Position numbers and translations under genes: made by a program. The notes beneath the pieces were generated by a model, which was given only the letters and a program-made list of their open reading frames with translations, was not told the DNA's origin and made no database searches. From Planctomycetota bacterium (lineage in GTDB: Bacteria; Planctomycetota; GCA-002687715; CAIWVZ01), in contig JBGANV010000011.1 in the NCBI GenBank assembly GCA_044222185.1, forward strand, positions 96,001 through 160,000: a stretch of DNA of 64,000 bases, written 5' to 3'. Shown here one piece after another: positions 30,295 through 46,422 of the stretch (within the stretch, counting starts at the first letter, position 1; every line of letters begins with the position of its first letter).

Positions 30295-31950
30295 TCACGG
30301 CGCGAACGAGAGCGCGAGCCCGTTGGAGACCAGCGGCGGCGAAGCCGCAGGGAACATGGCGCCCTGCAGCCAGAACGTAGCTCCGACGAGGCCGGGCTGC
30401 CGAAGGTCGACGAGGGTGCTGGCGACGCCCGTCGCCGGAATGGCGATCGGGATCGCCAGGAAGTGTCCCGGAAGCAGGTCGACGACCACGGGCACGCCAG
30501 CGACGGTCGTGGCCGACGGCGCGATGCTCGCGACCAGCACACCCGGTCCTGCGGAAGCACCGGACAAAATGACGGCCCCGGAGGATCCCTGGGTGTGGTT
30601 CCACGCAAGCGTGAGCGGATACGGCCCCGAGGCCTGACCGAAGACGTCGGCAACCGCGAGGCCGCCGATGCGAATGCTGCCCCCCGCGAATCCCGCTTCC
30701 AGGCTCGAGCAGATGCCCACCTCCGGGAATCCATCTCCGTTCTGATCACCGAGCCCCGCCACCGCGAGCCCCACCTGGCCAAGGGGCGTCGATCCGACGT
30801 AGCTCGCGAGCAAGGCTCCGGTCCCGGAATACACCGCGACGCGCCCGACGCCCGGGACGATCGGAGCGAGGGCCGAGTAGCCGGGTGCTCCGACGACGAG
30901 GTCCGGGATCCCGTCCCCGTTCAGGTCACCGGCTCCTGCGATCGAGAGGCCGAACTGGGCGCCGAACTGGGGACCACTCAACGTGGTCATCAATCCGCCG
31001 GTCGACCCCGAGAAGATGAAAACGCCGTTTTGGAGGATCGCGCCCGAAGCGAAGTCCGCGATGCCATCGCCGTTGGCGTCACCGATCGTGGTGAGCGAGA
31101 ACCCGAGCCCGCCGTTGATCAAGAAGGCCGGATTCAAGCCGGTCAGGCTGATCGTGTAGAGGACCGCTCCACTCGCACCGGAGAAGGCGCGCACATACCC
31201 CCCGGAGATCGGAGGTGTGATCGGCGTGTTGTCGGTCACGAGCGTGAGCTCGGGCGCGCCCGCTGCGAGGTCCTCGACGCCGTCACCATCGACGTCGCCG
31301 AGCCGCGTCACCGAGCTGCCGAGGAAGTCCGGCGCGCCCACCCCGACGATCGTGCGGATCGTCGACCCGGTCGCGCCTGAAATCACTCGCACGTAGCCAG
31401 TCGCGACCATGGAGCTCAGCTGCAGGGTGTCTCCTTGCGGAGCGCCGGCGACGAGGTCGCCCACACCGTCGCCGTCGACGTCGCCGATCGCGCACAACGA
31501 CCACCCGAACAAGTCGCCCGTGCTCGATCCGACGATGGTGCGCAGGACCGCACCGCTCGCGCCCGAATACACGTACACGACGCCGGCGTGGTACGGCGCG
31601 CTCGAAGGCAGATAGGGCATCCCGACTGCATAGTCCGCGACGCCATCCCCGTCCACGTCGGACAGGCCCGCGATCGCCTTCACCTTCGCGTCGGTGGAAT
31701 TGGGAACGATCGTGGTCGAGCGGATGACGGCGCCGTTCGAACCGGACACGACGAGTATCCCCGCCTGACCGGGCGCCGTCCTGACCGCGCCGACGACGAG
31801 GTCCGGAAGGCCGTCGGCATTCACGTCACCTACGCGGGCGACCGCCGAGGGGCGAGGCCAGACGGCCGAGGTCTGGCCGAAGGTGAGCCGTGTATGGAGC
31901 TGACCCCATGCCGGAGCGACCACGAGCAGCGCGATGGCGAGGAGTTTCAT
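30295..31950 (-). CDS. FG-GAP / integrin-alpha-like beta-propeller exported protein with C-terminal module (type B)
   Basis: Seven GD(V/L/A/Q)[ND]GDG..D...GAP-type repeats; signal MKLLAIALLVVAPAWG|Q; tail GLVGATFWLQG..F...VSNGLAL. Confidence 0.9.
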   Translation of the reverse strand: MKLLAIALLVVAPAWGQLHTRLTFGQTSAVWPRPSAVARVGDVNADGLPDLVVGAVRTAPGQAGILVVSGSNGAVIRSTTIVPNSTDAKVKAIAGLSDVDGDGVADYAVGMPYLPSSAPYHAGVVYVYSGASGAVLRTIVGSSTGDLFGWSLCAIGDVDGDGVGDLVAGAPQGDTLQLSSMVATGYVRVISGATGSTIRTIVGVGAPDFLGSSVTRLGDVDGDGVEDLAAGAPELTLVTDNTPITPPISGGYVRAFSGASGAVLYTISLTGLNPAFLINGGLGFSLTTIGDANGDGIADFASGAILQNGVFIFSGSTGGLMTTLSGPQFGAQFGLSIAGAGDLNGDGIPDLVVGAPGYSALAPIVPGVGRVAVYSGTGALLASYVGSTPLGQVGLAVAGLGDQNGDGFPEVGICSSLEAGFAGGSIRIGGLAVADVFGQASGPYPLTLAWNHTQGSSGAVILSGASAGPGVLVASIAPSATTVAGVPVVVDLLPGHFLAIPIAIPATGVASTLVDLRQPGLVGATFWLQGAMFPAASPPLVSNGLALSFAP

Positions 31951-32305
31951 GGCCAGGCCCAAGCAAATCCGATTCCGCAGGTTTTCCCCGAGGAGAACCC
32001 CGTGGACCAACGGGCGCACCTGCGCTCCCGTCACCGCCCGGTAGCGATCTCTCGAGGGGCGTCGCGCCAGACGACACACGCTCGCGGGGGCCTTTCGCTC
32101 CCGTTTCGAGAATGCCGCGAACACGGGTACACGGCTTCGTGCGCGGCGCGGGCGGAGACGAGGGCGTTACTCGCGAAGGGAGAGGAGACGAACCCCTGGC
32201 GCCGAAACGAGCTGCCCCAGAGGCCGGGCGGGATCTGGTGGCTCGAGGCGCCCTCGTCGGGCGCGAGGCCGGGGAACTGAAGCATGCTGCCCGATCCGCC
32301 AGGAA

Positions 32306-33327: not shown

Positions 33328-33699
33328 ATGAACCGTCCCACGGCTCTGTTCGGTGCCACGCTGCTCACCTGCGCCGTCTTCGCGTTTCCCATGCAGGACT
33401 CCAAACCGGTGACGCGTCCCGATGACTCGGCCAAGAAGATCGAGTCGCTCGCGAAGGCGCTGGATGCGGAGAAGCGACATTCGGCCGACCTGGAACGGCG
33501 GATCGATCGCCTCGAATCCGCCATGGTTTCGCTGCGCACGGCCGCCGAGCGGCTCGACTCCGCCGCCAACGACGCCCGCAAGAACGGGTTCGAACAGGCG
33601 GGTCCGAATCCGCTCGCCCACACGAACCTGCTGGACGGGCTGAAAGGGTTTGCCGCGCTGATCACGAGCCCGACCGCCGAGCCCACGCCGCCGCGGTGA
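33328..33699 (+). CDS. Small exported coiled-coil hypothetical protein
   Basis: RBS GGAG; hydrophobic N-terminus; heptad-like region IESLAKALDAEK..LERRIDRLE. Confidence 0.7.
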   Translation: MNRPTALFGATLLTCAVFAFPMQDSKPVTRPDDSAKKIESLAKALDAEKRHSADLERRIDRLESAMVSLRTAAERLDSAANDARKNGFEQAGPNPLAHTNLLDGLKGFAALITSPTAEPTPPR

Positions 33700-35821
33700 G
33701 GACGCACGCGACCCAGTAGGGCGGGAGCGTCACCGCCTCGGGATTCCGCAGACGCACACGCACCATCGCTGGGTGGTGAAGCGTCGCCTTCGCGTCGAGC
33801 GTCATGTCCGCGAGGTTGGACGAGTTCCACCTTCCGCCGTCGGGCCCACGCACGGAGACACTGAGCGGATCCGCGCCGACCGTCGCGAGCCGCGCGACCC
33901 CGCGCTCATCGGTCCGCGCGCGGGCAGGCCCCATCTTGGCCGCACGCTGCATGAACGTGATGGTCGCATCCGGGATCGGCTTCCCGGTCTCGTCGGTCAC
34001 CACGACGCGTCGCACCGTGGTCTTCCCCCGCAAATCCAGGGGCCCGAGTTCGGTCGGCACGATGGAAGCGCCGCGAATCACATCAAGGCCCTCGACTTTG
34101 CAGACCTCGACGTCCGAGACGAGAACCGTGACCGTGGCTTTCCCAGGCGGAAGCGGGGTGACGGCGAACCGCCCGTTCACGGGAGCGACAGAGATTCGGT
34201 TCGCCCGGAAGGTCTCGAGCATCGATTCACCGCTCCAGCCTGGGGCCGCGCGGTCCGGCGTGACGTCCCGTTCGAACTCCCCCGTGACTTCGACTCGGAT
34301 GCTCCCAATGGGAACGCCTTCGTCGACGAGGATCTCGCCCCGGATCTCCGCTCCGCGCAGCACGATCAGTTGCACGTCGCGTCGACCTGCGGTGAACGGT
34401 CGGCCGCCGGGCTGGTAGAACCCTCGTCGCGATGCCACGAGCCGGAGCTCGCCTGACGGCAATACGCCGCGGATCGTGAATCGGCCGTCCATGCCTGACA
34501 CCGCTTCCAGACCCGCCACCGGCACCCAGTTGGTGAACGCCATCTCCTTCACGCGGTCGGTCGCCTCGGTGAACTCGATGCCGAACATCGTCCGACGGTT
34601 GCACTCGACGGTGATCATCGCGCCGGGGACCGGCGCGAGGTCGGAGTCGACGACCGACCCGCTCGCCACGACGGCTGCTGGCGGGATGCGAACGTCACCC
34701 ACGTCGTCGACGCCCGGTCGCAATCCGCGTGGGACGACGATCTCACCGCGTCGACGCCAAGTTCCCACGAGCGACGGTCCGACGCCGACCGCCACTCGCA
34801 CTTGAACCAACGGGTCCGGGTCGGCGAACTCCGGAATTCGGATCCGGGCTCGCCCCTCGGTGTCGAGCGCGATCGCGCGCCAGAGGCTGCCGCCGGTTGG
34901 CCTCGGTCGATGCGGATCGATGACGGCCGCCGACGGCTCGGTCACGACGTTCACGACGACGTGCGTGTTCGCCAGCGGCTTTCCGCTGGGCGCGAGGACA
35001 CGCAGCGCGAGGTCGACGTCCGCGCCGGCATCCGCGGGTGACAACGCGACATCCATCGATCTGGTGGCGTCGGCGTCCGCGGGGATCTGCACCTCGGCGA
35101 AACGCGGCCTCGTCTCCGTCTCCACCTGCGCCGCGACTCGCACGCGTTGCCCGGCGCCGACTCTCGAAAACCGCGCCACTCCGTCCTTCGCAGCCACGGT
35201 CGCGCCGCGCATGCCGATCGCTTCACTCGTCATCGCCGACGGCGCCTGCGCGAGACGCGCGACGCTCACGACGGCGGGCCGTGAATCGGTCCCACCCTTC
35301 GCGTCGACGATGCGGACGTGCAAGGGAACGGACGCCGGGCAGACCAGCGTCACGGGCTCCTTCGGGAGGTGGCCCATCTCGAAGCGCGTCGACCGTGCCT
35401 CGGGGATTGGCGCCCCGAGCCGGACCTCGACGGGAATCCTCTCGGCGCCGATCGCGCCCGCGAGCATCACGAGCGGCACGCCGCCGCGAATCAACTCGAG
35501 TGCGCACGTGCCCGTTGCGTCGCTGACGGCGGACACGACGAGCGGCTGCGCGGACCATGGCGACGTGCCGAATCTCGTCCCGAACACCGCCGGGACGAAC
35601 CGCTCGCCGAAGGGAAACACGGCGACGACGGGCACGCCCGCGAGCGGTCGGCCAGCCGCGTCGACGACCCGGACCGCCACGACGCGATCCCAGTCGAACG
35701 TGTCCGGGTCCTGGGCGACGGCATACGCCGAACACAGGAACGCCAAGAAGAGCCATCGCGCCGTCGTAGCTCGTCGGCATGAACCCTGACGACTCACGCC
35801 ATCGCTGGGCCGGCGCGTCAC
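33662..35821 (-). CDS. Exported protein with carboxypeptidase-regulatory-like beta-sandwich repeats
   Basis: Repeats VRVVDAAGRPLAGVPV, GSVVDSDLAPVPGA, VTDETGKPIPDA, TDERG; signal AYAVA|Q; 3' end overlaps the convergent gene by 38 nt and may be truncated. Confidence 0.78.
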   Translation of the reverse strand: MTRRPSDGVSRQGSCRRATTARWLFLAFLCSAYAVAQDPDTFDWDRVVAVRVVDAAGRPLAGVPVVAVFPFGERFVPAVFGTRFGTSPWSAQPLVVSAVSDATGTCALELIRGGVPLVMLAGAIGAERIPVEVRLGAPIPEARSTRFEMGHLPKEPVTLVCPASVPLHVRIVDAKGGTDSRPAVVSVARLAQAPSAMTSEAIGMRGATVAAKDGVARFSRVGAGQRVRVAAQVETETRPRFAEVQIPADADATRSMDVALSPADAGADVDLALRVLAPSGKPLANTHVVVNVVTEPSAAVIDPHRPRPTGGSLWRAIALDTEGRARIRIPEFADPDPLVQVRVAVGVGPSLVGTWRRRGEIVVPRGLRPGVDDVGDVRIPPAAVVASGSVVDSDLAPVPGAMITVECNRRTMFGIEFTEATDRVKEMAFTNWVPVAGLEAVSGMDGRFTIRGVLPSGELRLVASRRGFYQPGGRPFTAGRRDVQLIVLRGAEIRGEILVDEGVPIGSIRVEVTGEFERDVTPDRAAPGWSGESMLETFRANRISVAPVNGRFAVTPLPPGKATVTVLVSDVEVCKVEGLDVIRGASIVPTELGPLDLRGKTTVRRVVVTDETGKPIPDATITFMQRAAKMGPARARTDERGVARLATVGADPLSVSVRGPDGGRWNSSNLADMTLDAKATLHHPAMVRVRLRNPEAVTLPPYWVACVLTAAAWARRSGS

Positions 35822-37290
35822 AGCCAGCCTCGGAACGCGGTGTCGAGTTCCTCGAACGTTTCACCGAGTGACCGCTTCACGGTGACCGCAATGTCGTCTC
35901 GGTGACTCTCCGTCAGCCAGCTGAGGAACTTGTCCTTGCGCGTCTCGAGGAAGAACGCCATGGCCGCGATCGACATCGTGTCGTGCTCGGAAGTGAGCTG
36001 GTCGATCTTCGAGCGGAAGAGCGTCTCCATGTGCATGAGATCGCCGGCCCTCCTCGAACCACGCAGCAGGGCGCGAACCGAAGCGAGCGTGGCGCCCTCC
36101 GGTCCATGAACGTCGCCTCCGCGCGCGTAGCGATCCTGCGCTTTCAGCAGGACCCGCGCCTCTCCCAGCGTCGCAATCTCGCAGTGGAGGCCGGCCGCGC
36201 GGTGGAGCCAATAGGGCGCCCGACCGTGAGTGCTCGTGAGGAGGAACAGGCTTCGCGATCCCATGTCGTCGGCGATCATCGGCTGCGGCGACGTGTCCCG
36301 CTCCTCGGAGTAGAGGTTGCACAGCTCCTTGAACCCGATCCCCGCCAGCCCTTCCGAACGCCTCGTGCCGGGTCTCAGGCCGTGGATGTCCCCGCACTCG
36401 GCGATGAACCGGTGCATGTCGGCATCGTGCGGCACGGCGATGAGGCGCGCGATGGGCGTCAGGACGAGGTCTTCGGCCTTGGGGCCGAACGTCCTCCCGA
36501 ACCACTGCCGGCACTTCTGCTGGAAGTCGGCGAGCTTCTGCGCCTCCGCACGTGACCTGGTCGTGAACGCGACCGAGCCGCCGGAGCGCGCGATGGAGAG
36601 CTGCAGTCCGAGAGCCTCCTTGAGCCGCCGCGCGACGTCGATCTCCGGTTGGAAATCGGACGTGTACCATTCGCCGCCCCAGGCAAGCAGGCCGCGTGAC
36701 GTCATGACCTCGACCACGGTTCGCCAGCGGCGGTCCGGGTCGACCATCCAATCCTTCGGCGCTGCCCGGATCGCAGCCACATCGGCCTTGAGCGCCCATC
36801 CGTCGTCGATCCGAACGCGTCCCTCCTTCGTCATCACTGAGATCACCGCCTGGTCCGCCGCCGACTTGCCCGCATACCAGACACCGTCGACCTTCACGTG
36901 CCCGAGCACGGCACGGGCCGCCGCATGATCGGGGTTCCGCGCGACGATGCGCCGAGCGAGCCGCTTGCCGTCACTGGCGAGGAACGAGTCCTTCGCCGCC
37001 CACTCGGCGAGGCCCGCGAGCGCGTTCGCATCCGACGGATCGATCTTCGCCAGCCTCTCGGTCACGCGCGACGACATGGGCTTGCCGCGCGCGATCGCTT
37101 CCACGTCGGCCTTGACGAGTCTCCGCAGCTCGGCGTTCGGCGTGACGAGTTCGACCGACCCTTCCGTCTCGCTCACGACGTCGCCGAGGAGCGTCGAGCC
37201 GTCTTTCAGCTTCACCGTGTCCTGGCCGAGGCACAGGGCGACGCAGAGGATGAACGTTGCCATGCCGGCTATGCCTGGTGATCGCAGCAT
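35818..37290 (-). CDS. Exported hypothetical protein with degenerate peptidase-MA-like C-domain
   Basis: QDTVKLKDGSTLLG, PDHAAARAVLGH..DG.W; P.WL motif but no HExxH; start uncertain. Confidence 0.7.
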   Translation of the reverse strand: MLRSPGIAGMATFILCVALCLGQDTVKLKDGSTLLGDVVSETEGSVELVTPNAELRRLVKADVEAIARGKPMSSRVTERLAKIDPSDANALAGLAEWAAKDSFLASDGKRLARRIVARNPDHAAARAVLGHVKVDGVWYAGKSAADQAVISVMTKEGRVRIDDGWALKADVAAIRAAPKDWMVDPDRRWRTVVEVMTSRGLLAWGGEWYTSDFQPEIDVARRLKEALGLQLSIARSGGSVAFTTRSRAEAQKLADFQQKCRQWFGRTFGPKAEDLVLTPIARLIAVPHDADMHRFIAECGDIHGLRPGTRRSEGLAGIGFKELCNLYSEERDTSPQPMIADDMGSRSLFLLTSTHGRAPYWLHRAAGLHCEIATLGEARVLLKAQDRYARGGDVHGPEGATLASVRALLRGSRRAGDLMHMETLFRSKIDQLTSEHDTMSIAAMAFFLETRKDKFLSWLTESHRDDIAVTVKRSLGETFEELDTAFRGWL

Positions 37291-37430
37291 GAAGGGCTCC
37301 GTGCGAGACATCTTGCCCCAATCGTGGTCGGATCGCCAAACCGAGCGAGACGCCGTGGCACCGCCCCGCTTCCAATCGCGATGCCGTGGAGGCTCACTCG
37401 AGGCGCCGACGCGCGACCGCCGCCCCTGAC

Positions 37431-38285
37431 TCACCGCGACCGGATCTCGAACGGAGAGTCCTCCATGTGCTCGTCGTCGAGGTTCGGCCGACCGTCCCAT
37501 CCCGGAAGCCGAACCCGGATCCAGGCCTCGACTGGCTCCCAGTGGTCGGGCGGTTCGTCACGCATCGGGCGCGATTCGGCCGTCGCCATCGGCGCGCCAG
37601 CGCGGATGCGCAACACGCGATGCTCGCGGGTGAACACCCCATCCACTGCGCACCGGAAGGTGAGCTCGCCAGGAACCGCGACCACCACCGGCATCTCGGA
37701 GATCGTGGTGCGGAAGTTGCAGATCGGCCGCCGCACCTGGACTTCTCCGAACTCGACCCGGCACGCGACCGAATCCTCACGGATCGCACTCGGCGTGATG
37801 GTCACCCGCGGGCCGTCCTCGATCGTCTGGATCCTGGCCGCAAGAATGTGCCAGGAAGCCTGATGCCCTTCGACGTCGAAATCGAGCGACACAGGCTGGC
37901 GAGTGCGGGCATCCGCGACGACGCAGCGTCGCTCGTCGAGGAATTCGCGGGTCGCGATGAGCACGTCGTCGATCCGTGAGCAGATCAACGGACGCACCAC
38001 GTGTACGAACTCCAGATCCGTCGCCCAGCGGATCGTCGCCTCGTCGGTGACGCTGGTGCGTTGCGCGCGAAAGACGACGACCTCGACTTCCGCACGCGGA
38101 TGATCCGAGGCGGCTTCGGCCTCTGCGACGGACGACGTCGCTCGAGGCGCCATCTCGCAAGCCATGCCGCCGGCGAGCCACGTGAGAATCAGGACGAGCC
38201 ATGCAGCCGTACGCCTGTTGGATTCTCGTCCGCAGCGGCCGGTCGCAAGCCGCCGATCCGGCGCCACGGCGTCTCTCGCCGCCAT
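37431..38285 (-). CDS. Hypothetical protein, possible lipoprotein
   Basis: TGATG coupling with the upstream gene; hydrophobic stretch ending GGMAC; beta-rich body. Confidence 0.55.
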   Translation of the reverse strand: MAARDAVAPDRRLATGRCGRESNRRTAAWLVLILTWLAGGMACEMAPRATSSVAEAEAASDHPRAEVEVVVFRAQRTSVTDEATIRWATDLEFVHVVRPLICSRIDDVLIATREFLDERRCVVADARTRQPVSLDFDVEGHQASWHILAARIQTIEDGPRVTITPSAIREDSVACRVEFGEVQVRRPICNFRTTISEMPVVVAVPGELTFRCAVDGVFTREHRVLRIRAGAPMATAESRPMRDEPPDHWEPVEAWIRVRLPGWDGRPNLDDEHMEDSPFEIRSR

Positions 38286-38521
38286 CACCACCCGGCCCGC
38301 ACGGCGAGGATGAGCGCACCGATCACGGCCGCGCCGATCCCAAGCATCCACCAGAGGCTGCCCACGAAGTACGGGTACACCGTGAGCACGCACCCTGCGA
38401 TGAGCTGGGGCCAGCGGCGCTGCTTCTTGCCGTAGATGAACAACCCGAACCCGACGCTTCCGATCGCCAGCGAGGCGAACAGAAGCCACGTGAAGTCAGG
38501 TGAGTCAGTCGAGATCGGCAT
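38285..38521 (-). CDS. Small conserved membrane protein (FxYGKKQ...YPYF type)
   Basis: GFGLFIYGKKQ, LTVYPYFV, three hydrophobic segments. Confidence 0.8.
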   Translation of the reverse strand: MPISTDSPDFTWLLFASLAIGSVGFGLFIYGKKQRRWPQLIAGCVLTVYPYFVGSLWWMLGIGAAVIGALILAVRAGW

Positions 38522-38670
38522 GGAGTTCCTCGGTGGAACGAGAACGCCGCGAGCCACGCGGGCCCGCATCACGCGCCGCCGATCCTATCCGACTGTCCGC
38601 CGCGAGCGCCGGAACATCCGACCCCACCCGTTCCAAAGAGGGACAGCACGGCGCGGACCCGGACCCCACG

Positions 38671-39813
38671 TCAGAGGCCGGAGATCTCGCTCGTGATCGC
38701 CTGCTCGAGTTCGTCGGGCTTGAACCCGAATGGTCCGGGCGCGGATCGGTACGCGACGCGTCCCTCGCGGTCGATCAGCACCAGCCGATCCGGCCAGGCC
38801 TCGTACGCGCGATCGACCGAGTTCGCCATGTCGTCGACGAGTGCCGGGATGGGCTCGAGCGCGAGACGCGTCATGCACGACGCGGCGACCGCATGGCGCT
38901 CGGCGGCGGTGACGGGCTCTTCGACCATGGGCAGATCGGCGCTCGTCATCGGCCACGGCGAATCGATCGCGTGCGCCTCGCGAATGTAGACGACGAAGAA
39001 GCTGACCTCGCCGCGATGCTCTTCCCAGAGGTTCTTCAGCCGACCGGCTGATTCACGGAAGGGCGGTCAAGTGAAGCTCCCGAAGATCAGCGCGACGGGG
39101 CGTTTGCCGCGAAGGGATGAAAGGCGAACCGGCTCGCCACCGGCTTCGGGCGCGAGTTCGAAATCCGGAGCCATCTCGCGGTCTTCGGCTGCGATGGCGC
39201 CGACCGGCGGCTCGCGCCCCTCGGTCGCACGCTCGCGCGGGAGCATGATCCCGTCGCGGTTCACGTCGCGGCGATCGAACCCCGCGAGGGCTTCCTCGAC
39301 GGTGATCGCTCCGTCGTGATTCGCGTCGAGCGCCGCGAGGAGCGAGCCGAACGAATCGGTGGCGCCGGCACGCGGAGCGGCCGCGGCCGGACCCATGTCC
39401 GCCCGCGTGAGCTTGCCATCGTGGTCGCGGTCGGCGCGGAGGAAGCCCGTGGGCAGGTCCTCGCGCCTCAACTGCGCCGCGCCCGGATCGCCGAACATGC
39501 GGATGAGGAGGAACGGCGTGGCCAGCTCGGTGGGCATGATGACCGGCAGGTCGAAGTCGGCCGCCGTGATCGCGCCATCGCCGTCACGATCGAGCGCTCG
39601 GAACGCGTCGCTCCCGCGGTCGTACTCGTCGGCGCGGACCTGGCCGTCGCCGTTCCGGTCGTAGCGCTGCGCGAGGAAGCGCCAGGCCGGATCGCCGCTG
39701 GCCGAAGCCGCGGGAGCGACGGCCGGTGGTGTGGAGGTATAACCGGCCAGGATCACGAAAACCGCGACCACCGACCTGCGGTGCGGGATGCGGGCGAGTC
39801 TCATGCCGCGCAT
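38671..39813 (-). CDS. EF-hand + iodothyronine-deiodinase-like selenoprotein (UGA 39069-39067 read as Sec)
   Basis: ORFs 39067-39813 and 38671-38949 share a frame; read-through gives GKRPVALIFGSFT-U-PPF...FFVVYIREAHAIDSPW...LVDDMANSVDRAYEAWPDRL..ID..GRVAY...GPFGF; five DxxxDG EF-hand-like loops; start could be 39804. Confidence 0.88.
39036..39051 (-). promoter_or_regulatory. Candidate bacterial SECIS hairpin
   Basis: mRNA UGA-N15-UCAGCC-GGUC-GGCUGA: perfect 6-bp stem with a G-initiated 4-nt loop just 3' of the UGA. Confidence 0.7.
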
Positions 39814-39844: not shown

Positions 39845-40693
39845 TCAGTTGATGTTCAGGCTCGCGACGCTCGTGACACCAATCTGGATCGTGAGCGTGG
39901 GATCGAAGAACGTGGTCACGGCGTAGAGGTCAGGCAACGCGGGCGAAAGCGCGCCCGGCGGGAGTGAGAAGTCGGCGATGCCAGCGAAATCGAGCGCGCC
40001 GATGAACGGCGCGACACCGGTCTGCGCCTGCTGCACCACGTCCAGAAGGCTGATGTGGAGGCCTTGCCACCATCCGAGGCCCGGGGACGTCGCGTTCGCC
40101 GTGTGGAAGCTGAACGCGGTGAAGTAGATCGCGCCAGCGAAACCGGCAGCGGGTGGCCCGTAGACGTGGACGAGCAAGCTGCCCGACCCCTGCGGCTGGC
40201 TCAACGTCAGCTCGACCGCGGGCGAGGTCAGACTCACGAGCCACGCGCCAGGCCCCCAGGTGATGACGTTGTTCTGGAAGCCGGTCCCGTCGATCGTCGT
40301 GAATCCCGGGCTGCTGAACGACTGCACGAGCCATCCATCCGGCGCCGTCGCGCTGGAGTGGTATCCGATCCAGCGCGGGCCGCCGTTCGAGAGGGTGTAC
40401 TGCGGCGCGCCCATCACGCTCACGAGAGTCTGCCCCGTCGGGGCGCTCTTCCCATTCAGTGCGTTGATCTGCGCGCTCGTCGCCCAGGTCCAGATCTGGC
40501 TCGACTGAACGAACGCGTTGATCGCCGCGCGCGTCTGGCCCACCCATAGCGCCGGGTCGTACCAATAGAGCCCCGTGGAGCTGTCGTAGAAGTACTGGCC
40601 GGATTGCCCCACGTTCACGAGCTGCGTGAAGGCCGGCGATCCGAGTCCGAGGCAGAGGATGGCGATGGTCAGCCCGCGATTTCTCGAAGTCAT
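39845..40693 (-). CDS. Exported protein with short N-domain plus C-terminal module (type A)
   Basis: Signal ...GSPAFT|Q; YDSSTGLYW..WATSAQI; tail LSQPQGSGSL...YFTAFS...PGLGWWQGLHI...PFIGALD. Confidence 0.82.
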   Translation of the reverse strand: MTSRNRGLTIAILCLGLGSPAFTQLVNVGQSGQYFYDSSTGLYWYDPALWVGQTRAAINAFVQSSQIWTWATSAQINALNGKSAPTGQTLVSVMGAPQYTLSNGGPRWIGYHSSATAPDGWLVQSFSSPGFTTIDGTGFQNNVITWGPGAWLVSLTSPAVELTLSQPQGSGSLLVHVYGPPAAGFAGAIYFTAFSFHTANATSPGLGWWQGLHISLLDVVQQAQTGVAPFIGALDFAGIADFSLPPGALSPALPDLYAVTTFFDPTLTIQIGVTSVASLNIN

Positions 40694-41028
40694 TGTGGTC
40701 CCTTTTCGGCGTTGACGTTGGCGAACTGCGGAGAGCGTCCACGGGGCGTGGTCGAGGCAGACATCCGACGATGCTGCGAGAGAAACGAACGAAAGCGAAG
40801 TCGCACTGGAGGCGCCAGGCTTGATCCGGTCAGCGCCGGCGCAAGCAACCCTCTCGAACGAGCGCGCACGGCACGGAGGAATCGAACCGCCCTCATGCCG
40901 CGCGCGTGATAGCCGCGGCAGTATCGGGCGGGGCCGGGTGCCAGTCAAGGCCGATGTGGGCTCGGTGACTGACGGCCCGCCACGCCATGGTCACGTTCGT
41001 ACACCGGGCCATCGCCTCAGTCGCGCGC

Positions 41029-43524: not shown

Positions 43525-44403
43525 ATGCCATCCACCCGCAAACCGAGTCCGAAGGCGGCGAAGGCCGTCGTCAAGAAAACACCCCCCAAGAAGGCCGCCG
43601 TCGAGAAGGCCGCTCCGAAGAAGTCCGCGGCCGTGAAGCCCGCGTCCAAGAACACGAAGCCAGCGGGCGAAGCCATGTCGCTCGCGGACGTCATGCGTGC
43701 TCTCGAGAAGGCCGGGTCCGAGAAGACCCGGAAGACCTACGCGCGACACGGCGCCACGGGCCCCATGTTCGGGGTGGCCTTCGGAACGCTATTCGACCTC
43801 CAAAAACGGATCCGCGTCGATCATTCGCTCGCGCTCGCATTGTGGGATACGGGCAACGTCGACGCGCGCAACCTCGCGATGAAGATCGCAGACCCCGCCG
43901 TGATGAAACCGGCGGACCTCGATCGCTGGGCGCGCGAGAACGCCATGCGAATGTGCAATCTGTACATCGGAAGTCTCGCGTCCGAGTCGCCCCACGGTGC
44001 GACGAAGGCGCGTGAGTGGCTCGCCTCGTCCGACGTGAAGCTCCGCGCCGCCGGCTGGACGCTCGTCGGCATCCTCGCCAATCGCGACGAGTCATCGCCG
44101 GATGCGGTCTTCACCAAGTACCTCGAGCAGATCGAGAAGGGCATCCACGGAGCCCCCAACGAGGAGAAGGGCGCGATGAACGGCGCGCTCATCGCGATCG
44201 GAGGTCGCAGCGCGGCACTGCGAAAGTCCGCGTGCGCCGCCGCGAAGCGCATCGGCAAGGTCGAGGTCGATCACGGCGACACCGCCTGCGAGACGCCGGA
44301 CGCGATCCCGTACATCGACAAGCTGTGGGCGCGCTCGGATGGGAAGTTCCCCTCGCCTGCCGCCGCGGAGCGCTCACGGGAATCGATGCGAACACGGTGC
44401 TGA
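43525..44403 (+). CDS. DNA alkylation repair (AlkD-like HEAT) protein with N-terminal histone-H1-like K/A/P tail
   Basis: RHGA..PMFGV, DHSLALALWDTGN.DAR.LA, IGKVEVDHGDT.C.TPDA; first ~50 aa include KKTPPKKAAVEKAAPKKSAA. Confidence 0.85.
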   Translation: MPSTRKPSPKAAKAVVKKTPPKKAAVEKAAPKKSAAVKPASKNTKPAGEAMSLADVMRALEKAGSEKTRKTYARHGATGPMFGVAFGTLFDLQKRIRVDHSLALALWDTGNVDARNLAMKIADPAVMKPADLDRWARENAMRMCNLYIGSLASESPHGATKAREWLASSDVKLRAAGWTLVGILANRDESSPDAVFTKYLEQIEKGIHGAPNEEKGAMNGALIAIGGRSAALRKSACAAAKRIGKVEVDHGDTACETPDAIPYIDKLWARSDGKFPSPAAAERSRESMRTRC

Positions 44404-45474: not shown

Positions 45475-46422
45475 TCAATTCTTCATCTGCAAGTGTTCCC
45501 GTGCGTTCTTCAGTGAGCGCTGTGCGATCGAGTCGCCTGGGCGGAGCGCGAGCGTCCGCTCTGCTTCGGTGCACGTGTCCTCCCAGCGCTCCAGCTGGTG
45601 GTACACGGCCGTGAGCCAGGAGTGCGCATCGGCGTCGTCGGGCGCGAGTTCGATCGCCCGTTTCAACGGCGCGATGGCGGCTTCGGACCTGCCCGATAGA
45701 TGCAGCGCCCGCCCGAGGTTGGAATGCGCCCTCGGGAAGTCGTTCCGCAAGGCGATCGTTCGCTCACATTCCGCGATGGCGTGCCCCCAGTCTTTCAGCT
45801 CCCCACGCACCATCGCCAATCGGAAATGCGTTTGCGGATCCGCCGGGTCGAGCTCCGCGATCACGGTGAGTTCCTGAAGCGCCTCTTCCCATCGACGCAA
45901 CCTCGACAGGGCGTCCGTGAGATTCGCCCGAGGTTTGACGTACGTCCGGTCGAGCGCCATCGCGCGGCGGAACGCATCGATCGCGGCCTCGTCGTTGCCG
46001 AGCGCCGCATGAGCCGAGCCGAGGGTGTTGAAGGTCTTCGGGTTGGTCGCGTCCAGCGCGATCGCACGCTGGCAGGCCGCCACGGCCTCGGCGCTCTTGC
46101 CGCTCGCCAGCAAGGCCCAGCCGAGATTGCTGTGAGCCTTGGCGTTCGACGGATCGATGCTGATGGCTTTTCGCGTCTCCTCGACGGCCTCGCCCCACTG
46201 CTCGATCTGTCCCAACGCATGCCCGAGCTTGCGGTGCAACTCGGCATCGTTCGGGTTCTGCGCGACCGCCTCCCGGAAGGACCGGGCGGCCTCGCGATAG
46301 TCGCCCTTGGCGGCAGCGTCATTCGCGCGCTCGACCGCAGGCCGTGAATCACACCCGCAGAGGGCGACGAGGATGCACGCGAGACAAGGACTCAGAAGTA
46401 CGCGCCGATTCGAACGTGACAT
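45475..46422 (-). CDS. TPR-repeat lipoprotein
   Basis: Lipobox LCGC; about 8 TPR units (AHSNLG.AL...G...EA......A..L.P). Confidence 0.9.
   Translation of the reverse strand: MSRSNRRVLLSPCLACILVALCGCDSRPAVERANDAAAKGDYREAARSFREAVAQNPNDAELHRKLGHALGQIEQWGEAVEETRKAISIDPSNAKAHSNLGWALLASGKSAEAVAACQRAIALDATNPKTFNTLGSAHAALGNDEAAIDAFRRAMALDRTYVKPRANLTDALSRLRRWEEALQELTVIAELDPADPQTHFRLAMVRGELKDWGHAIAECERTIALRNDFPRAHSNLGRALHLSGRSEAAIAPLKRAIELAPDDADAHSWLTAVYHQLERWEDTCTEAERTLALRPGDSIAQRSLKNAREHLQMKN

Follow-up and report, generated by a model that had tools for sequence, protein, structure and literature searches.

Deiodinase-like selenoproteins of bacteria were first reported in 2005 by Zhang, Fomenko and Gladyshev, who described forms with selenocysteine (Sec), including four Sec sequences from the Sargasso Sea, as well as Cys-containing forms and a bacterial SECIS (Sec insertion sequence) element, and presumed a redox function (PMC1088965). 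In the same account, the bacterial SECIS element is a stem-loop located just 3' of the UGA codon, with a small apical loop containing G. Two later reviews, published in 2022 and 2026, list the family at the Pfam level only in their available text (PMC9312934 and PMC13188914, respectively); the terms 'Planctomycet' and 'signal peptide' are absent from that text of the former, and 'EF-hand' and 'Planctomycet' from that of the latter. A full-text literature search for EF-hand-fused deiodinase selenoproteins of Planctomycetes returned only work on animal selenoproteins and a single plant or algal study, and the accessible part of the literature on the bacterial proteins gives no known substrate. 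Here, a gene of this kind is described from a 64,000-nucleotide (nt) stretch of Planctomycetota DNA, referred to below as the window (contig JBGANV010000011.1 of assembly GCA_044222185.1). It is a Sec-type, EF-hand-fused form of the known bacterial deiodinase-like family, which should not surprise a selenoprotein specialist, and it very likely encodes a functional, exported EF-hand/deiodinase-like selenoprotein working through a redox cycle of Sec249 and Cys313. As far as the family is described in the available text, the window protein shares with it the Pfam domain PF00837, the Sec/Cys column, a bacterial SECIS element after the UGA and a presumed redox function, and it differs in that its export leader or lipobox is followed by five EF-hand loops. 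The features discussed are collected in Table 1.

With translation table 11, the open reading frame (ORF) 39813..39067 on the minus strand stops at the TGA 39069..39067, inside ALIFGSFT-TGA-PPFRESAGRL, and the same frame then remains open until a second TGA, exactly as an earlier note on this DNA had described when it proposed a hidden selenoprotein. A protein search gave 174 matches at E<=1e-3, 120 of which were listed and aligned to the query. In the column of residue 249, these 120 have Cys in 95 cases, W in seven, S, L and E in one each, and a gap in 15. Eleven of the 15 gapped matches, including P0002, stop exactly at ...ALIFGS[FY][TS], and the other four begin past the codon. All W cases read FGS[YF][TS]WPPF (P0057, P0062, P0071, P0072, P0076, P0089 and P0104), where TGA has apparently been called as Trp. 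Stop-tolerant searches extended the comparison to the DNA level. Among 61 related genomes, 28 had a match, and exactly one TGA was present in 41 of 43 rows, the other two being pieces with EF-hands only. Across the phylum, 75 of 251 genomes had a match; when the 105 rows were counted by hand, an in-frame TGA was found in 99, exactly one in 95, and none in six, two of which do not span the site. After removal of two unrelated pattern matches (in L015 and L017), the TGA lies within [FL]G[SA].T-U-[PG]P[FY] in 29 of 30 fetched loci, L038 being off the pattern. The source names of the Cys-type homologues are Planctomycetota families. Thus, what defines a bacterial selenoprotein gene, an in-frame UGA that aligns with Cys or UGA and lies between two conserved flanks, is found here, and the expectation of the earlier note that homologues would have Cys or Sec at this position is borne out.

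Some further observations concern the Sec-type relatives themselves. Truncated relatives are seen in P0013, P0053, P0056, P0068, P0088, P0095, P0103, P0116, P0120 and P0121. Multiple Sec-type copies occur in several single genomes, for example with five matches in G113, four in G134 and three each in G061, G087, G142 and G182. One locus, L046 (G177:C234), has two TGA codons and an in-frame TAG in the SECIS-coding stretch (FRR*AGAL), and could represent either a pseudogene or a fault of the assembly.

The genome assembly (7.08 Mb, 16 contigs, 93.8% complete) contains the complete Sec machinery, the presence of which had been proposed as the first check of the prediction. selA (396.9 bits) and selD (370.6 bits) score over their curated cut-offs and selB reaches 330.4 bits versus a cut-off of 242, and a tRNA-Sec(UCA) of 95 nt, whose acceptor stem has 8 bp and whose extra arm is long, is located about 120 nt downstream of selA. 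selD itself contains an in-frame TGA (in GGGUACK), so the genome carries at least one other gene for a selenoprotein; at this locus (L010, G000:C14:427704-428624), the TGA in GGGUACKIG is followed by a predicted hairpin. TGA is the commonest stop in the genome, ending 12466 of 15284 long open frames, and the gene in question itself ends in TGA, which excludes a recoded genome. These data also bear on the possibility that UGA-249 is read as a residue other than Sec, either through near-cognate suppression by Trp or Cys or through a variant code. W is indeed called at this column in the seven database homologues mentioned above, but the use of TGA as the main stop, the presence of tRNA-Sec and selB, the conserved SECIS element described below, and the fact that the alternative residue among the 120 listed homologues is Cys (95) and not Trp make such decoding exceedingly improbable.

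Downstream of the UGA, a stem-loop of the kind described for bacterial SECIS elements in the available text of PMC1088965 is found, with a 6-bp stem and a GGUC loop, and its position and letters are precisely those given in the earlier note. To follow this structure in relatives, 29 Sec loci were aligned from -6 to +54 around the UGA and the named 6-bp stem was counted. It is paired in 83.3% of 174 cells, compared with 21.8-46.0% after a shift of the 3' arm by 1-3 columns, and compensatory cells, in which both sides have changed, number 15 versus 5.1 +/- 2.1 in shuffles (0 of 500 shuffles reach 15). An example of a compensated stem is GAAGCC-GGUC-GGCUUC in L018 and L019. In addition, the 19 relatives that keep AGRL in this stretch use nearly the same codons (GCC in 19/19, GGT in 18/19, CGG in 18/19 and CTG in 16/19), whereas at other conserved four-fold sites of these genes 3-5 codons occur, the most frequent one at 0.32-0.79. 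Such suppression of synonymous change is the signature of constraint at the RNA level, and GGT would be a rare choice in genes so rich in G+C. With its GGUC tetraloop and short G+C stem, the hairpin presumably resembles the apex of the E. coli fdhF SECIS element. More distant Sec forms have different hairpins in shifted registers, such as CAGGC-CGGGN-GCCUG and GGCGCYN-GGY-NRGCGCC, and, by our own reading of the printed folds, Sec forms have a small hairpin with G in the loop after the UGA. Two Cys-type genes recovered as DNA (L042 and L056; n=2) are without the family hairpin.

Several studies of metagenomes from bioreactors or activated sludge also have contigs with this stretch, and four runs were compared with the window. 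Record 5 of X3 (38856-39558, 6 other letters) and record 9 of X7 (38822-39168, 3 other letters) both bridge the TGA and the hairpin with no difference there, so that contigs of two other studies keep TGA at the position where reads with TGC or TGT had been named as a refutation. Single-base differences occur at 39019, 39114, 38890, 38896 and other positions (about 99% identity), none of them in the UGA or the hairpin. Contigs from RNA libraries cover 38779-39011 (X11) and 39499-39689 (X19); the UGA lies outside both, and with DNA carry-over possible they are evidence of neither transcription nor read-through. The Sec machinery, the homologue column, the independent contigs and the conserved hairpin, with its covariation and suppressed synonymous change, all support the hidden selenoprotein that had been proposed, and there is little doubt that Sec is inserted at UGA-249 and that the resulting protein is functional.

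When the TGA is read through, Pfam PF00837 (T4_deiodinase) matches residues 232-371 and spans the codon, with an E value of 1.1e-23 and 84.2 bits (cut-off 27), and the best sequence matches in the PDB are mouse Dio3 (4tr3, E 1.4e-17) and Dio2 (9h48, E 6.7e-14). An AlphaFold2 model was built from a 56-row alignment (mean predicted local distance difference test score, pLDDT, 77.9); pLDDT exceeds 90 over residues about 200-380, and the leader and the linkers 90-115 and 181-199 are of low confidence. A Foldseek comparison with the PDB placed 9h48 and 4tr3 on top (E about 2.5e-12, TM score 0.76 by target, root-mean-square deviation 2.7, 29-30% identity), followed by extracytoplasmic thiol-disulfide reductases, namely ResA (1su9, E 1.1e-08), DsbE/TlpA-like proteins and pneumococcal Etrx lipoproteins. 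The deiodinase-like architecture suggested earlier from the sequence is therefore found by Pfam, PDB sequence and Foldseek matches in agreement. Of the two deiodinase motifs that had been cited in its favour, FGSFT-U-PPF is exact, but YI.EAH..D.W is present only in the form YIREAHAIDSPW, with one extra residue, P286, whose column is gapped in 103 of 106 aligned homologues. In the model, codon 249 sits between strand beta-1 (240-245) and helix alpha-1 (250-254) of the thioredoxin fold, at the catalytic position.

This placement is relevant to the alternative that the TGA is a true stop, leaving a nonsense pseudogene or a 248-residue EF-hand protein followed by an unrelated downstream ORF. Gene callers do end there (P0002 and 10 similar truncated entries), and frames that stay open past a TGA are frequent in this genome (G+C of 67.5%), in which at least 131 further open codons follow 4035 of 12466 (32%) TGA-ended frames of at least 200 codons. 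But such a stop would split the thioredoxin fold at its catalytic residue, between beta-1 and alpha-1, the same TGA recurs in nearly all matches across the phylum, the amino acids of the downstream half are strongly conserved, and both a conserved RNA hairpin and the full Sec machinery are present, all of which renders a true stop very improbable.

Residues that are invariant or nearly so in 106 domain-spanning homologues are P239, G245, T/S248, U/C249, P251, F252, R253, Y276, R278, E279, A280, H281, W287, D327, Y337, P341, R343 and G351. In Dio2, as described in the accessible text of PMC11592359, a proton relay is formed by Ser127, Thr129, Tyr157, Glu160, His162 and His182, with Trp167 stacking on His162, and re-reduction proceeds in a peroxiredoxin-like manner through a selenenyl-sulfide. 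By alignment, these residues other than His182 map to the conserved S246, T248, Y276, E279, H281 and W287 of the window protein. Dio1-3 of animals have in common with it this network of Ser, Thr, Tyr, Glu, His and Trp, the YI.EAH..D.W region and the placement of Sec in FGS.T-U-PPF. However, the N-terminal transmembrane dimerisation segment of animal type is not found in the window protein, which adds EF-hands and the one-residue insertion P286 and has a different conserved Cys, Cys313 (93/106 homologues, 19/19 close Sec forms), and the SECIS element of the animal genes lies in the 3'-untranslated region, whereas the bacterial one is inside the coding region. No role as a substrate is expected for thyroid hormones. 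ResA, TlpA and the Etrx lipoproteins, as is likely for the window protein, have an extracytoplasmic thioredoxin fold anchored to membrane or lipid; in contrast to their CxxC pair, the window protein has a single Sec and a distant Cys (+64), together with deiodinase-specific insertions and EF-hands.

The five EF-hand-like loops that had been noticed from the sequence are all recovered in the N-terminal half. A strict PROSITE-type loop pattern fits three of the five (those starting at 75, 128 and 163, in each of which position 12 is Asp or Glu); in the remaining two, position 9 is degenerate. The EF-hand models of Pfam score over their cut-offs (PF13405 49.1, PF13202 47.9, PF00036 46.2 and PF13499 44.7), and the helix-loop-helix of the first pair, residues 41-89, is modeled at pLDDT 86-97. 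Judged by these motifs, the EF-hands probably bind Ca2+ outside the cell. They are missing in 11 of 29 Sec-type loci, and the redox domain can thus do without them. Their role may be regulation of the enzyme, by analogy with SELENON, or mere stabilization. According to the available text of PMC9344019, SELENON joins an EF-hand with a Sec redox domain in a Ca2+-controlled reductase of a Ca2+-rich, oxidizing compartment. A related proposal is therefore that the window protein could be a Ca2+-sensing redox regulator of SELENON type, in which EF-hand occupancy, by altering the conformation or the oligomeric state, would switch the reductase toward a specific envelope protein. Both proteins join EF-hand(s) and a Sec thioredoxin-like domain in an oxidizing, Ca2+-rich compartment (PMC9344019, as far as its text is available), and the low-confidence linkers 90-115 and 181-199 separate the modules in the model. 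On the other side, the likeness is one of pure analogy, no partner gene is conserved nearby in the related loci, and the Sec domain works without EF-hands in the 11 loci mentioned. Moreover, the redox domain and active-site motif of SELENON differ from those of the window protein, and EF-hands of extracytoplasmic bacterial proteins often merely stabilize folds, so such a regulator appears quite doubtful. Membership in two further families, lanmodulin and XopAW, was considered and rejected, as their NCBIfam scores were far under cut-off (23.2 versus 135 and 37.6 versus 120, respectively).

Features of signal peptides and lipoboxes were read by eye. The hydrophobic N-terminal leader noted earlier is present, with a helix at residues 15-22 in the AlphaFold2 model, and such a leader is found in 18 of 18 EF-hand Sec relatives and 10 of 10 truncated database forms. 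A Cys follows the hydrophobic core in eight of these ten forms (e.g., LAGC in P0088), and the remainder have cleavage regions of the ...AQE type. The remark that LAGY is one base from LAGC was apt: the closest relatives have lipoboxes, namely LLAGC (L013), LAAC (L014) and AAGC (L015), and in the X3 and X7 contigs from two other studies a plus-strand T>C change at 39740 turns codon 25 from TAT to TGT and LAGY into LAGC. Tyr25 is thus either a strain variant with lost lipidation or an assembly error. Judged from these leaders, the protein family is probably extracytoplasmic and often a lipoprotein, and the window protein would be a variant of what was originally a lipoprotein. Twin-arginine export was considered because of the RR in HRRSVV here and in LRRAWL of L013; other relatives are without RR, and this route was judged unlikely by eye.

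Several observations weigh against a functional, exported, deiodinase-like selenoprotein. The open frame past the TGA is by itself at chance level in this genome. Similarly, the hairpin is part of the minimum free energy structure of 39005-39075 (71 nt), but the fold is not unusual in stability (z = -0.81, with 39 of 200 shuffles as stable); RNAalifold did not find a consensus structure for all 29 Sec loci, because distant members hold hairpins in other registers; and an Rfam scan of 38950-39150 at E<=10 gave no SECIS family, only chance-level matches (E 3.4-8.1). At the protein level, the full deiodinase relay and distal Cys are not preserved, as Dio2 His182 corresponds to P300 and Dio2 Cys205/Dio3 Cys239 to P323. 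The protein scores 232.2 bits in three stretches against the cut-off of 250 of NCBIfam NF038285, a model with the same two-module architecture (E 1.2e-68), and the lipobox pattern [LVI][ASTVI][GAS]C does not match LAGY in this assembly. Finally, when ORFs were clustered across 30 related loci with flanks of about 1.5 kb, only the two halves of the gene and overlapping frames were recovered, and no conserved partner. What lends support beyond chance is the homology across the TGA and the comparative conservation, not the open frame or the single hairpin.

A mechanism consistent with these results can be proposed for the exported selenoprotein. SelB with Sec-tRNASec would recognize the GGUC-looped hairpin and insert Sec at UGA-249, giving a product of about 380 residues and not a 248-residue EF-hand fragment. 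An N-terminal signal peptide would then direct export, with an LAGC lipoprotein as the probable product in close relatives and near-identical strains, and the LAGY form here might either be cleaved by signal peptidase I or remain anchored by its leader. Outside the cytoplasm, the protein would comprise a five-loop EF-hand module, most likely Ca2+-binding, and a C-terminal deiodinase-like thioredoxin-fold module, in which the Sec249 selenolate would lie at the start of helix alpha-1, backed by a network of Ser246, Thr248, Tyr276, Glu279, His281 and Trp287. This selenolate might attack an electrophile, most likely a peroxide or an oxidized sulfur or selenium centre and less likely an aryl halide. 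Cys313, rather than a distal Cys of deiodinase type, would be the candidate to resolve the oxidized selenium into a selenenyl-sulfide, which could subsequently be reduced by an extracytoplasmic thiol reductant. Because two deiodinase features, the second relay His and the distal Cys, have no conserved counterpart at their columns, the deiodinase mechanism is not simply transferable.

The same active site could also belong to an extracytoplasmic reductive dehalogenase, as the earlier note had in part envisaged, which would remove I or Br from halogenated phenolics via a selenenyl-halide, in the manner of the animal deiodinases, with Ca2+ gating or stabilizing the enzyme. Dio3 and Dio2 are the closest solved structures by both sequence and fold, most of the deiodinase network is conserved, and metagenomes from bioreactors and activated sludge contain near-identical DNA, a setting in which halogenated aromatics would be plausible. 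Nevertheless, no activity is reported for bacterial members in the accessible literature on the family, and these members probably serve another, redox function according to the available text of PMC1088965. In addition, neither Dio2 His182 nor the distal Cys is conserved at its column, the fold matches after the two deiodinase structures are thiol-disulfide reductases, and dehalogenation-related neighbours are found neither among 17 ORFs of the window nor in the 30 related loci. On balance, a dehalogenase seems unlikely. Bolder, and rather improbable, is the idea of a lipid-anchored selenoenzyme whose deiodinase-type site might be switched by Ca2+, either as a bacterial counterpart of SELENON or as a Ca2+-dependent periplasmic dehalogenase of iodinated or brominated phenolics, widespread yet invisible in annotation. 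If true, it would provide the first defined function for bacterial deiodinase-like proteins and bear on the origin of deiodinase chemistry.

Within the known families, NF038285 ('deiodinase family protein') represents Cys-type EF-hand plus deiodinase proteins with the source names Isosphaeraceae and Isosphaerales, and full-length matches to it, at 494-507 bits, are given by P0012, P0017 and P0069. The two-module architecture is common to the window protein, but these proteins have Cys in FGNFT-C-GPF, whereas Sec is found in FGSFT-U-PPF here. Some members carry the JGI name 'Iodothyronine deiodinase/EF hand'. For 130 domain sequences, a quick maximum-likelihood tree (midpoint root, several long branches, careful search unfinished) placed 18 Sec-type EF-hand proteins, including that of the window, in one group (Shimodaira-Hasegawa-like approximate likelihood ratio test support 88-95), with the Cys-type EF-hand clade (95) apart and EF-hand-less Sec and Cys forms between them; a 'Cys_TPR' label inside the Cys-type EF-hand clade is an artefact of a crude regular expression. 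From this topology, one fusion with EF-hands followed by later losses, or two separate fusions, would be possible.

In public collections, Sec-type relatives appear as 'Ca2+-binding EF-hand superfamily' or hypothetical proteins of about 245 residues, or with W at the Sec position. Relatives are cut at the UGA in databases, and therefore the redox half has been lost from annotation. The Sec form is the rule in the sampled phylum, present in 99 of 105 matches with 75 of 251 genomes having a match and up to five copies per genome, and the family appears to be a sizeable and under-counted part of these selenoproteomes. Given the leader or lipobox, the EF-hand module and a second Cys that is conserved, the hypotheses would be confined to redox reactions outside the cytoplasm, which may depend on Ca2+. 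The protein is a compact assay target of about 340 residues, expressible as U249C, and offers a handle on the function of the family.

Table 1. Coordinates of the selenoprotein gene, its parts and neighbouring ORFs in the window.
Feature	Position	Strand	Remarks
Whole selenoprotein gene	38671..39813	-	380 residues from ATG 39813; terminal stop TGA 38673..38671
Alternative start	ATG 39804	-	GAGG 9 nt upstream; database gene call P0002 begins here
N-terminal export leader, residues 1-38	39700..39813	-	basic n-region RLARIPHRR, hydrophobic core VVAVFVILAG, possible signal-peptidase-I site A-S-A/S (cut before the last S)
Codon 25, TAT (Tyr) in VILAGY	39739..39741	-	TGT (Cys) in contigs X3 and X7
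EF-hand region, residues 52-194	39232..39660	-	five DxDxDG-type loops starting at residues 52, 75, 128, 163 and 183
Deiodinase-like thioredoxin-fold domain, residues 213-374	38692..39177	-	
UGA codon 249 (Sec)	39067..39069	-	catalytic residue of FGSFT-U-PPF
SECIS hairpin UCAGCC-GGUC-GGCUGA	39036..39051	-	6-bp stem, GGUC loop, 15 nt after UGA; also encodes S-A-G-R-L
Cys313 codon	38875..38877	-	candidate resolving cysteine
Pfam-matching neighbour	30295-32124	-	
Pfam-matching neighbour	33662-35821	-	
Pfam-matching neighbour	43525-44403	+	
Pfam-matching neighbour	45475-46422	-	

In the neighbourhood of the gene, the directly flanking ORFs (39845-40948, 38285-38572, 37431-38489 and 35818-37500) have no Pfam match, and the Pfam families found among 17 ORFs between 30295 and 48645 were FG-GAP, CarboxypepD_reg/Ig-like, DNA-alkylation-repair and TPR. 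A third architecture was also observed among the homologues, in which Cys-type domains (FGSYSCPNF) are located behind long N-terminal TPR arrays (P0097, P0099, P0100, P0105, P0108, P0110, P0112, P0114 and P0119), and these members form a clade of their own in the quick tree.

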